Source of the DNA: an uncultured Thermomicrobiales bacterium
GTDB taxonomy: Bacteria > Chloroflexota > Chloroflexia > Thermomicrobiales > CFX8
Direction of reading: 5' to 3'
Length of the DNA stretch: 36,911 nt
Assembly (NCBI GenBank): GCA_964399615.1
Contig: CAYNTE010000001.1
Location: forward strand, 21,305-58,215
Below, piece after piece: positions 1,361 to 3,348 of this stretch. The position numbers were made by a program, and so were the translations under genes. Positions within the stretch are counted from its first letter, which is position 1. Each line of letters begins with the position of its first letter. The notes under the pieces were generated by a model. The model was not told the DNA's origin. It did no database searches and saw nothing but the letters and a program-made list of their open reading frames with translations.

Positions 1361-2026
1361 TCAGTCAGCAGAATCGGTAGCGGCAGTGGTGATCTGGAGC
1401 GGATCGACCGAGCGCGCCTCGCCGTCATTCGCCACAAACCCTGTGAGTCCGATGAGTCCGGCTACGATGCCGGCAAGTCCCACCAGCACGAACGTGAGCC
1501 GGACACCGAGGAACGGCATGAGCACCAGCACCGGCACGAACGTCCCGATCAACGAACCTACCGTGCTCAAGCCGAAGATCCGGCCCGACGACGCCCCCGC
1601 CTCGCCGACCTGCGCCACGGTCAGCCGGATGGCCGCCGGGGTGACCAGACCCAGCAGAAACGGCTGGATGGTGATCAACGCGAGAACACAGATGAAGACC
1701 CCTAGCGTGACACCGCCGAAGTCAAAGGTCCAACCTTGCACCCAAAACGCAAACGAGCGTCCGGCGAAGGCAACGCCGAGTGTCCAGAGACCGGCACCGA
1801 TCAGCGCCAGACTCATCACCCGGTGTGTGGGCTGGCGGTCGATGAGCTTGCCCCCCAATTGATAGCCGATCGAGAGCGCTGCAAAGGTAACAGCGATGAC
1901 GATCGACCAGAGATCTAGTGTGGTGCCGAATGCTGGCGCGAGCAGCCGTTCTGCGGCGAGTTCAACGCCGAGGCCAACGACTCCGGCCATAAAGACTGCG
2001 AACTTGGCGTAGGTTGCAACCTGCAA
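1361..2026 (-). CDS. Membrane protein resembling the N-terminal domain of 'fused MFS/spermidine synthase' proteins, without the catalytic domain
   Basis: 221 aa, about 6 TM helices. Motifs ELAAERLLAPAFGTT..WSIVIAV..ALSIGYQLGG, LLGLVTP and SGRIFGLSTVGSLIGTF. TTG start with GGTGGAGAG RBS. Confidence 0.8.
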   Translation of the reverse strand: MQVATYAKFAVFMAGVVGLGVELAAERLLAPAFGTTLDLWSIVIAVTFAALSIGYQLGGKLIDRQPTHRVMSLALIGAGLWTLGVAFAGRSFAFWVQGWTFDFGGVTLGVFICVLALITIQPFLLGLVTPAAIRLTVAQVGEAGASSGRIFGLSTVGSLIGTFVPVLVLMPFLGVRLTFVLVGLAGIVAGLIGLTGFVANDGEARSVDPLQITTAATDSAD

Positions 2027-2115
2027 GCGTGTCTAACTCTCCACCGAAAATACGCATGATGCGTGTCGAATCCCCGCTAATTGTGCCGCAGGCGCGGGGA
2101 AGAACCCACGAATTT

Positions 2116-2124
2116 AGAATATCA
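2116..2124 (-). promoter_or_regulatory. Possible extended -10 promoter (TGnTATTCT) for the leftward operon
   Basis: Minus strand reads TGATATTCT about 90 nt upstream of the 2026 start. No good -35. Confidence 0.35.
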
Positions 2125-2137
2125 CCTCATCGCGATA

Positions 2138-2166
2138 TTGCGTTATTCATATCCGTAGGGTATACT
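2138..2166 (+). promoter_or_regulatory. Sigma70-type promoter
   Basis: TTGCGT (2138-2143), 17-nt spacer, TATACT (2161-2166). Predicted TSS about 2172-2174. Confidence 0.75.
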
Positions 2167-2172
2167 GCTTTC

Positions 2173-2390
2173 AGCTAACGAGGGAATGGTGATGGCCTGG
2201 AGCCACGAGAAACCACGAAATCGATCAACCTCGATCGAATCGCAGCTGGTTAGCTAGCTGCGAAGGGCAGTCCGAGAACCGTCGTCGGAATGTCCATAAC
2301 TACCAACCAGAGACGGTACCTTCTATTTACCTCATTAACTCCAGGATCCATCAGTCCATATGGAGCGGGGCCCAACAGGGCCCCGCAGCC
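2173..2390 (+). ncRNA. Candidate structured non-coding RNA (possibly 6S-like, or a new class)
   Basis: Promoter directly upstream. Long closing stem 2186-2202 with 2339-2359, four internal hairpins, and a 9-bp GC hairpin at 2365-2386. No convincing ORF. Confidence 0.6.
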
Positions 2391-2407
2391 ATTTCCAGCG
2401 TCTTTTT
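2365..2407 (+). terminator. Putative terminator hairpin
   Basis: GCGGGGCCC-AACA-GGGCCCCGC perfect 9-bp stem. The T-run is displaced to 2403-2407, so it is atypical. Confidence 0.5.
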
Positions 2408-2481
2408 CGCCTATGAATCAGCAAAATCCCCAGTTATGATGTCTGAGGAAGAGCGACCTGCCACGGCTGGAGGGAGATCCC

Positions 2482-2907
2482 ATGCACCAGTTCACTGATC
2501 CCGAGAAACGCTTCCTCGACTGCGACGGAGCCTACTTGCGGCTGGCGACGCTCCACGCGAACGGAGCGCCGCACCTGACCGTGATGTGGTTCCGGCGGGA
2601 AGCAGATCGCATCCTGATGATCACGCCGCTGGACTCCCAGAAAGTCAGGAATCTCAGACACGATACCCGCTTTTCCGCATTGATCGAAGACCCCGAGACG
2701 CCACAGCGCTACCTTGAACTGCGCGGGACTGCTGAAATCATCAACGACGATCAACGCGCCCGCGAAGAGCTCTTCCGGATTGCCCGCCGCTATATCGGCG
2801 ACGATCGCGCCCAGGCCTACGTCCAGGGCTTATCCCCTGCTCCCCGCGTCATCCTCGCCCTCGACACCGAGACCATCTTCAACCGCAACGCACTCGAAGA
2901 CGCATAG
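2482..2907 (+). CDS. PPOX-class (split beta-barrel) probable F420-dependent oxidoreductase
   Basis: 141 aa. Motifs LATLHANGAPHLTVMWF, SQKVRNLRHDTRFS and YLELRGTAEI. GGAGGGAGA RBS. Confidence 0.85.
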   Translation: MHQFTDPEKRFLDCDGAYLRLATLHANGAPHLTVMWFRREADRILMITPLDSQKVRNLRHDTRFSALIEDPETPQRYLELRGTAEIINDDQRAREELFRIARRYIGDDRAQAYVQGLSPAPRVILALDTETIFNRNALEDA

Positions 2908-2919
2908 CTACGAATTCGA

Positions 2920-3348
2920 TTAGCGCGGATCAGGCCCGTTCGGCAGGTGGTAATGCTTGAGTTCGATGCCGTGGCCGTCGGGGTCTTGGATGTAGAGAGC
3001 GTCGCCGTTGCCGTAGGCACCCTGACGGTTGCTAACCGGTCCCTCGATGATCGGGATGCCGCGCTCTTTGCAGACGTTTGCCAGCTCCTCGAGGTCCACC
3101 GGCTCGATCACGAGTGCGACATGGTTGAATCCGCCCTTGCTGGGGTCCCAATCGCCAACGTTGGGGACGATATCAATCAGCGCCGAGCCGGCCCGTAGCG
3201 CTGCGAAGCGGATATTGCCGTCGGCATCGTAATTCTGTCGAACCAGAGGCATCCCCAGTACATCGCGGTAGAACGCTATCGAGCGCTCGATATCGCGCGA
3301 ATTGATGTTGATGTGCTCCATGCCGATCGGTGTTACCAATGCATCCAT
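2920..3348 (-). CDS. VOC/glyoxalase family protein
   Basis: 142 aa. Motifs EHININSRDIERSIAFYRDVLG, NHVAL and LYIQDPDGHGIEL. Confidence 0.9.
   Translation of the reverse strand: MDALVTPIGMEHININSRDIERSIAFYRDVLGMPLVRQNYDADGNIRFAALRAGSALIDIVPNVGDWDPSKGGFNHVALVIEPVDLEELANVCKERGIPIIEGPVSNRQGAYGNGDALYIQDPDGHGIELKHYHLPNGPDPR

Follow-up and report, generated by a model that had tools for sequence, protein, structure and literature searches.

A single-copy, pseudoknotted RNA gene conserved in one family of Thermomicrobiales-type Chloroflexota

Introduction

What is encoded in the 455-nt intergenic gap at positions 2027–2481 of a 36,911-nt stretch of DNA from an uncultured Thermomicrobiales bacterium (GenBank assembly GCA_964399615.1, contig CAYNTE010000001.1)? 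In this stretch, referred to as the window and numbered from its first letter, a first-pass annotation made from the letters alone had placed a candidate RNA of about 200 nt with its own transcription and extensive structure. It offered three identities: a divergent 6S-like RNA that binds RNA polymerase, an undescribed class of non-coding RNA, or a riboswitch-like leader for the downstream PPOX gene.

We find that positions 2138–2396 of the + strand constitute a stand-alone gene, present once per genome, whose product is a structured non-coding RNA of ∼190–225 nt. As far as our models reach, the RNA is restricted to a single family whose genome records are titled Thermomicrobiales, Chloroflexia or Chloroflexi. 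It is a new RNA family of a kind already known, the lineage-restricted structured small RNAs (sRNAs).

Results

An RNA gene found once per genome in a single family

The + strand between 2170 and 2400 folds with a minimum free energy (MFE) of −99.7 kcal/mol, compared with −64.3 ± 5.0 kcal/mol for 200 dinucleotide shuffles, none of which was as good (z −7.09); the − strand reaches z −4.26. Together with a conserved promoter and contigs from RNA libraries (both described below), this bears out the annotated independent, highly structured transcript. The stretch is single-copy in its source genome (G000), and the gene comprises the following parts:

2138–2396, + strand: RNA gene, stand-alone, from promoter through 3′ tail
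2138–2166, + strand: promoter, −35 TTGCGT (2138–2143), 17-nt spacer, −10 TATACT (2161–2166)
2173–2189, + strand: 5′ leader, with conserved GGAAU at 2184–2188
2190–2202, + strand: P1 5′ strand, TGATGG and CCTGGAG, paired with 2339–2353
2203–2220, + strand: J1/2, the A-rich strand
2221–2238, + strand: P2 hairpin, stem CGAUC/GAUCG, loop AACCUC
2240–2263, + strand: P3 hairpin, of varying length
2265–2295, + strand: P4 hairpin, outer stem 2265–2269/2291–2295, inner stem 2271–2275/2285–2289, loop 2276–2284
2278–2283, + strand: pseudoknot 5′ strand ACCGUC, within the P4 loop
2312–2317, + strand: pseudoknot 3′ strand GACGGU, paired with 2278–2283
2318–2338, + strand: pyrimidine-rich strand, with CUUCU and an invariant CCUC at 2330–2333
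2339–2353, + strand: P1 3′ strand, CTCCAGG-AT-CCATCA
2355–2364, + strand: P6, a small hairpin (tentative)
2365–2386, + strand: terminal GC hairpin, 9 bp, a probable terminator or 3′ protective hairpin
2387–2396, + strand: 3′ tail AGCCAUUUCC, able to pair with 2181–2189 in the source genome

A plain DNA search of 19 other genomes from the same GTDB family (f1) returned partial matches in seven; once these were aligned, the promoter and the hairpins proved to be conserved and compensatory changes could be seen. A covariance model (R1), for which the structure was set by hand on 10 sequences, then gave exactly one full-length match (74–209 bits) in the source genome and in 18 of its 19 relatives, so that 19 of 20 family genomes carry the RNA; the sole genome without a match is an 81%-complete assembly.

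Outside the family, R1 found nothing in 131 genomes of the other four families of the order (f2–f5). A second model of the shorter core, built from all 19 sequences (R2), gave strong matches in family genomes only, whether in a 151-genome sample of the class or among 41 genomes from f4, the neighbouring family. Its 15–24-bit matches elsewhere were rejected as noise: none of those inspected keeps the P2, P3, P4 and pseudoknot strands together, and the best-looking (L166) covers only 41 nt. Twelve of these weak matches were inspected, eight with alignments, and two loci were read; matches in three unpublished genomes (G228, G134 and G094) were left out, these genomes entering the negative tallies in denominators only. 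A pattern scan of named genome records yielded 114 stretches, of which nhmmer confirmed nine, all from records titled Chloroflexia, Thermomicrobiales or Chloroflexi. The remainder are chance matches, and one of them, L010, looked like coding sequence when read individually. Since these range searches cover samples of genomes, their negative results hold for the genomes examined and are no proof of absence.

Covariation supports a branched, pseudoknotted fold

Covariation among Chloroflexota homologues, which the first-pass annotation had named as a check on the RNA, is present and extensive. In an R1-fitted alignment of the 19 sequences, to which the pseudoknot was added manually, 36 of 55 pairs are changed on both sides and 84.6% of 1018 cells are standard pairs, against 32–43% when the 3′ partners are slid by 1–3 columns. 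None of 500 column shuffles reached the observed value on any of five measures. Because an alignment fitted in this way leans towards the model, the count was repeated for the core on a MAFFT alignment, which is not structure-fitted. There, 88.4% of cells are paired (23–41% when slid) and 16 of 27 pairs show double changes. G-U pairs are frequent (11 of 19 sequences at one P1 pair); read from the opposite strand they would become A-C mismatches, which fits the + strand as the RNA strand. Covariation retains a complex fold across nine genera, consisting of a closing stem (P1), an A-rich strand, a sequence-invariant P2, a variable P3, a P4 that carries an H-type pseudoknot, a strand rich in pyrimidines, the small hairpin P6 and, at the end, the GC hairpin.

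P1 is a 13-bp closing stem; in the annotation it spanned 2186–2202 and 2339–2359, and this pairing is in the sequence. Of its 12 model pairs, seven are changed on both sides, with 78% of cells paired. J1/2, annotated as unpaired, is so in both the MFE fold and the consensus. The P2 stem is identical in sequence in 17 of the 19 homologues and stays paired in the other two (U-A to C-G, A-U to G-U). P3 has eight pairs, six with two-sided changes (91% paired), and its tip holds inserts of 12–30 nt in other genera. The inner stem of P4 shows two-sided changes in all four pairs (86–87% paired); its outer stem is 63–64% paired in a region where the alignment is weak. P6 appears by eye as a short hairpin of differing sequence in most homologues, with 54% of cells paired in the model alignment.

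Two extra complementarities had been annotated as possible pseudoknots or as a switch to a rod, and they fared differently. The ACCGTC/GACGGT pairing joins the P4 loop to a 3′ strand, which together with P4 is an H-type pseudoknot: 97.4% of its cells are paired, three of six pairs are compensatory (exchanges A-U to G-C and C-G to U-A), and RNAalifold selects it unaided, the helix being outside both covariance models. The CTGGTT/AACCAG pairing comprises 6 bp in the source genome only, is reduced to 3–5 bp in the other 18 sequences, no better than shuffles, and was rejected along with the switch to a rod that depended on it. Three of the four annotated internal hairpins (2221–2238, 2240–2263 and 2265–2295) likewise stand as P2, P3 and P4. 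The fourth, at 2301–2318, does not: it shares GACGGT with the covarying pseudoknot, with which it competes, and has no conserved equivalent by eye.

The annotated GC hairpin at 2365–2386 is present and 99% paired across homologues, with compensatory change in three of its seven outer pairs; a terminator scan did not call it, because the short U run sits 5 nt past the stem. In the source genome the 3′ tail and the leader could form a duplex around this hairpin (−13.2 kcal/mol, 0 of 300 shuffles as good), and genus g2 alone has a comparable one. Such end pairing is absent in g8, g3 and g9 and was rejected as a conserved feature. A helix between J1/2 and the strand that follows the pseudoknot (CUGGAU/AUC-UA-CAG in g5, g7 and g9) was also rejected, being broken without compensation in one genome (G011) on inspection. 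A hidden small open reading frame (ORF) was discarded as well: no frame is stop-free in more than 4 of the 19 genomes, and in the source genome stops interrupt each of the six.

No match to known RNA families

Rfam 15 gave no match at gathering scores anywhere in the window and none at E ≤ 10 within 1950–2550, the 6S model RF00013 included, in agreement with the annotated possibility of an undescribed class. The annotation had recognised no signal recognition particle (SRP) RNA, RNase P RNA or transfer-messenger RNA (tmRNA) motifs, and these three are indeed excluded: none matches the region, and copies above cut-off lie on other contigs of the source genome (large SRP RNA on C135, 197.5 bits; RNase P RNA on C126, 123.3 bits; tmRNA on C78, 178.3 bits).

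In 19 of the 20 family genomes RF00013 has a single match elsewhere, full-length but below threshold (16–34 bits; cut-off 46.4), and 18 of the 20 rows align as one conserved RNA of ∼165 nt. The family therefore already has a 6S-type RNA. In the source genome this RNA lies outside the window at C55:1898–2030 (L009:1501–1633), where it scores 24.2 bits and has a rod-like fold (z −4.95). It is probably the true 6S RNA of the family, overlooked at the Rfam threshold. This 6S-like RNA has its own promoter of the TTG...TATACT type.

Searches of the source genome (95.5% complete) for Ro/TROVE (PF05731), Hfq (PF17209) and CsrA (PF02599) returned no match, which speaks against readings as a Y RNA, an Hfq-dependent sRNA or a Csr sponge; by inspection, the RNA holds one or two GGA motifs at most.

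Nor did a literature search on non-coding RNAs of Chloroflexi, Thermomicrobiales, Thermomicrobia and Sphaerobacter, with survey supplements outside its scope, turn up a description of such an RNA. In the part of a 2010 structured-RNA survey that was available, the phylum is represented only by Chloroflexi-1 (Chloroflexus aggregans, RF01698) and pan (PMC2864571). The main text of a 2017 survey contains none of the terms Chloroflex, Thermomicrob or Sphaerobacter, its supplementary motif tables lying outside the search (PMC5737381). The RNA may be listed as an unnamed motif in such supplements.

One RNA, two promoter and neighbour types

The following features flank the RNA in the window:

1361–2026, − strand: 221-aa membrane-protein ORF, left of the gap and divergent from the RNA
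2119–2138, + strand: palindrome ATATC-N10-GATAT abutting the −35 hexamer, a candidate regulator site whose function is inferred
2482–2907, + strand: PNPOx/PPOX-family ORF, right of the gap

Seven loci, the window included, share this upstream arrangement and are termed class A (genera g1, g3 and g8); in each the divergent upstream gene encodes the 221-aa membrane protein. The promoter TTGCGT-N17-TATACT lies where it had been annotated. Its −35 hexamer is identical in all seven class-A genomes, and its −10 hexamer is TATACT in six and TATAAT in one. A generic promoter scan, against whose consensus it matches at 8 of 12 positions, did not call it. The sequence ATATCAC...GATATTGCGTTA is present again in all seven genomes of this promoter type, and GGAA(U/G) is kept at the 5′ edge of the homologous region.

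The 221-aa protein has no Pfam match and resembles the N-terminal membrane module of fused MFS/spermidine synthases (NCBIfam NF037959, 71.5 bits, positions 4–180 of 480). It appears as a free-standing module without the synthase domain and adjoins the RNA in seven genomes. Class-A loci also share a box, TAATTGTGCC (window 2078–2087), with AATTGTGC in six of seven and one base changed in G016; on the − strand it resembles a −10 element for the divergent membrane-protein gene. One RNA-library contig of that gene stops at 2072.

In the 11 class-B loci (g2, g4, g5, g6, g7 and g9), the divergent neighbour encodes an OmpR/PhoB-type response regulator; after it comes a histidine kinase that has HAMP, HisKA and HATPase domains as well as two membrane-flanked sensor segments. 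A 12th two-component locus is truncated where its contig ends. Orthologues of the regulator (72–100% identity) occur in exactly those 12 of the 19 genomes. The best relatives in the seven class-A genomes are at paralogue level (47–58% identity), and the genome without the RNA also lacks a regulator orthologue.

In class-B loci, the interval that separates the regulator gene from the RNA holds three or four direct repeats (T/C)GTCA(T/G) in 11-bp phase, seen by eye in L124–L142 at 30–110 nt upstream of the core (e.g. within the 170 nt before L134:1501). Direct repeats at 11-bp phase are a known layout of OmpR/PhoB-family sites, and from their sequence and position we regard these as candidate binding sites of the neighbouring regulator. 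Two promoter and neighbour types thus surround one RNA, whose regulation therefore appears to have been rewired between class A and class B while the RNA itself stayed. In g5, g7 and g9 (L134–L140), extra conserved sequence ∼100 nt upstream of the core, between it and the repeats, includes GAGTATAGCGGCA and a local hairpin and could be either a 5′ extension of the RNA or a second promoter.

Downstream, the genes differ by genus, with at least five unrelated families: PPOX (in the source genome only), a 145-aa Cys-rich ORF (three g8 genomes), a 130-aa ORF (g7), a CNNM/PaeA-like exporter (g9) and an HTH protein (g3). This variation suggests that the RNA acts in trans rather than in cis. Conserved downstream ORFs are co-oriented with the RNA in at least 11 of 19 loci. 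The 145-aa ORF (L125:930–1367, − strand, with counterparts in L127 and L128) has a Cys/His-rich N-terminus, lies directly 3′ of the RNA and has no Pfam or NCBIfam match.

Contigs from RNA libraries

Twenty public runs from nine studies contain the stretch or part of it, five of them recorded as RNA. Four RNA-library runs from three studies were compared with positions 1400–3100. Three contigs (2183–2370, 2194–2361 and 2187–2345) show no differing letter and stop at or before the terminal hairpin. The fourth (2189–2498), with one differing letter, passes the hairpin to the start of the PPOX gene; termination was therefore incomplete in that sample. The four 5′ stops (2183, 2187, 2189 and 2194) fall within 12 nt, which hints weakly that the 5′ end lies at the conserved GGAAU, ∼10–15 nt downstream of the start predicted from the −10 element. 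Such contigs cannot fix ends, strand or level, and RNA libraries can contain DNA. The uncovered parts (2073–2188 in run X15 and all else in 1400–3100 in X17, X18 and X19) were not used as evidence, nor was the highest contig depth figure, 71, which falls over the RNA, used as an expression level.

Discussion

The best overall explanation of these data, which we hold tentatively and at somewhat less than even confidence, is an undescribed, family-restricted RNA that regulates in trans. As to mechanism, we weakly favour translational repression by displayed CCUC strands. In the 19 genomes, CCUC lies between the pseudoknot and P1 without exception, J1/2 always carries a CCUC, CUUC or CCAC tetrad, and the P2 loop presents CCUC in ten, CUUC in five and CCCC in four. 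Each RNA holds 1–6 copies of CCUC, compared with 0.8–1.7 in shuffles, and conservation in the unpaired strands equals that in the helices.

The anti-Shine-Dalgarno sequence has ACCUC as its core, and in RsaE/RoxS- and 6C-type sRNAs multiple C-rich motifs pair with ribosome-binding sites without dependence on Hfq. By analogy, the rigid scaffold of P1–P4 and the pseudoknot would display two or three unpaired pyrimidine tetrads resembling the anti-Shine-Dalgarno core. By pairing with purine-rich ribosome-binding sites of the GGAG type, these tetrads would reduce the translation of target mRNAs with no need for Hfq. In 12 of the 19 genomes the divergent OmpR/PhoB-type two-component system would set transcription of the RNA via the phased (T/C)GTCA(T/G) repeats; in the seven class-A genomes, where this system is missing, the other promoter with its ATATC-N10-GATAT palindrome would be in use. 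The likeness to RsaE/RoxS and 6C lies in several C-rich or pyrimidine tetrads that stay unpaired within loops and linkers, and in the absence of a detected Hfq gene from the source genome. The present RNA differs in being two to three times longer, in having four covarying helices and a pseudoknot, and in matching no Rfam family.

Several points weigh against this picture. The 4–5-nt motifs on which the proposed pairing mechanism rests could be common to any pyrimidine-rich strand. A four-helix junction with a pseudoknot and an invariant P2 is more typical of protein- or ligand-binding RNAs than of base-pairing sRNAs. Seven of the 19 carriers, the source genome among them, lack the two-component system, which therefore cannot be essential to what the RNA does; the repeats, for their part, may act solely on the promoter of the regulator itself. 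The RNA-library contigs neither prove transcription nor fix the ends of the RNA, and the read-through contig leaves room for some cis effect on the downstream gene.

Nearly as likely as CCUC pairing is a protein- or ligand-binding scaffold that works without base pairing, whether as a decoy, a sponge, a component of a ribonucleoprotein, or a trans-acting aptamer or ribozyme. Such a role would account for a P2 stem identical in 17 of 19 sequences though pairing alone would permit change, as well as for a complex fold held by covariation across nine genera. The RNA also adjoins a two-component system in 11–12 of 19 genomes, and GlmY and CsrB are protein decoys under two-component control. As in CsrB/RsmZ and GlmY, a structured sRNA is likely driven by a response regulator, here the divergent neighbour in 11 of 19 loci. 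Unlike them, it shares no sequence or fold similarity with these RNAs, has no repeated GGA loops on inspection, and its regulator is missing in seven of 19 carriers; the genes for CsrA, Ro and Hfq were not found in the source genome. No protein gene is conserved beside the RNA in both synteny types, and the varying neighbours give no clue to a ligand. A more specific form, in which the RNA would represent a new class of pseudoknotted RNA whose four-helix core binds a protein or small molecule as output or decoy of the OmpR-type system, is possible, though less likely than not. One parallel is the raiA motif RNA, which, as far as the consulted part of its description goes, is likewise highly structured, conserved and independently transcribed, with its biochemical function unassigned (PMC10861870); the present RNA has no Rfam match, that of raiA included, and is far narrower in range, being confined to one family.

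The other two identities proposed by the first-pass annotation have lost most of their ground. The leader or riboswitch reading, in which the terminal hairpin would control the downstream gene in cis, draws on a PPOX gene that begins 96 nt 3′ of the hairpin on the same strand, on the co-oriented ORFs in at least 11 of 19 loci and on the one contig that spans 2189–2498. We consider it very unlikely: the same or a related gene is not found downstream across species, PPOX following the RNA in the source genome only, with unrelated genes in its place in other genera; no riboswitch family matches; and three of four contigs do not extend past the hairpin. P6 lies between P1 and the hairpin, and by inspection, with no systematic search run, no strand was seen to compete with it. 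A divergent or second 6S-like RNA, with P1 in the role of downstream duplex and an open bubble made by the A-rich and pyrimidine-rich strands, is highly improbable. The RNA shares with 6S RNA a size of ∼200 nt, one copy per genome, its own promoter and a long closing stem next to two long, opposed unpaired strands, and two 6S RNAs are present in some bacteria. Against it, the region has no RF00013 match even at E ≤ 10, the apical half is a branched arrangement of P2, P3 and P4 with a pseudoknot in place of the irregular stem of a rod, and a separate, rod-like RF00013-matching RNA with its own promoter exists in 18 of 20 family genomes.

Implications

Covarying bacterial RNAs with pseudoknots and multiple helices often prove to be riboswitches, ribozymes or protein-regulating RNAs, and each new class with a complex fold is a lead to new biochemistry. 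Its narrow distribution limits the immediate impact of the present RNA. With a clean alignment of 19 sequences from nine genera, a defined promoter and a two-component neighbour in most carriers, it is ready for experiment. Thermomicrobiales-type Chloroflexota are common in soil, compost and sludge and are poorly studied; the RNA sequence itself is present in RNA libraries from soil and compost samples. The gene would be a first handle on RNA-based regulation in these bacteria.

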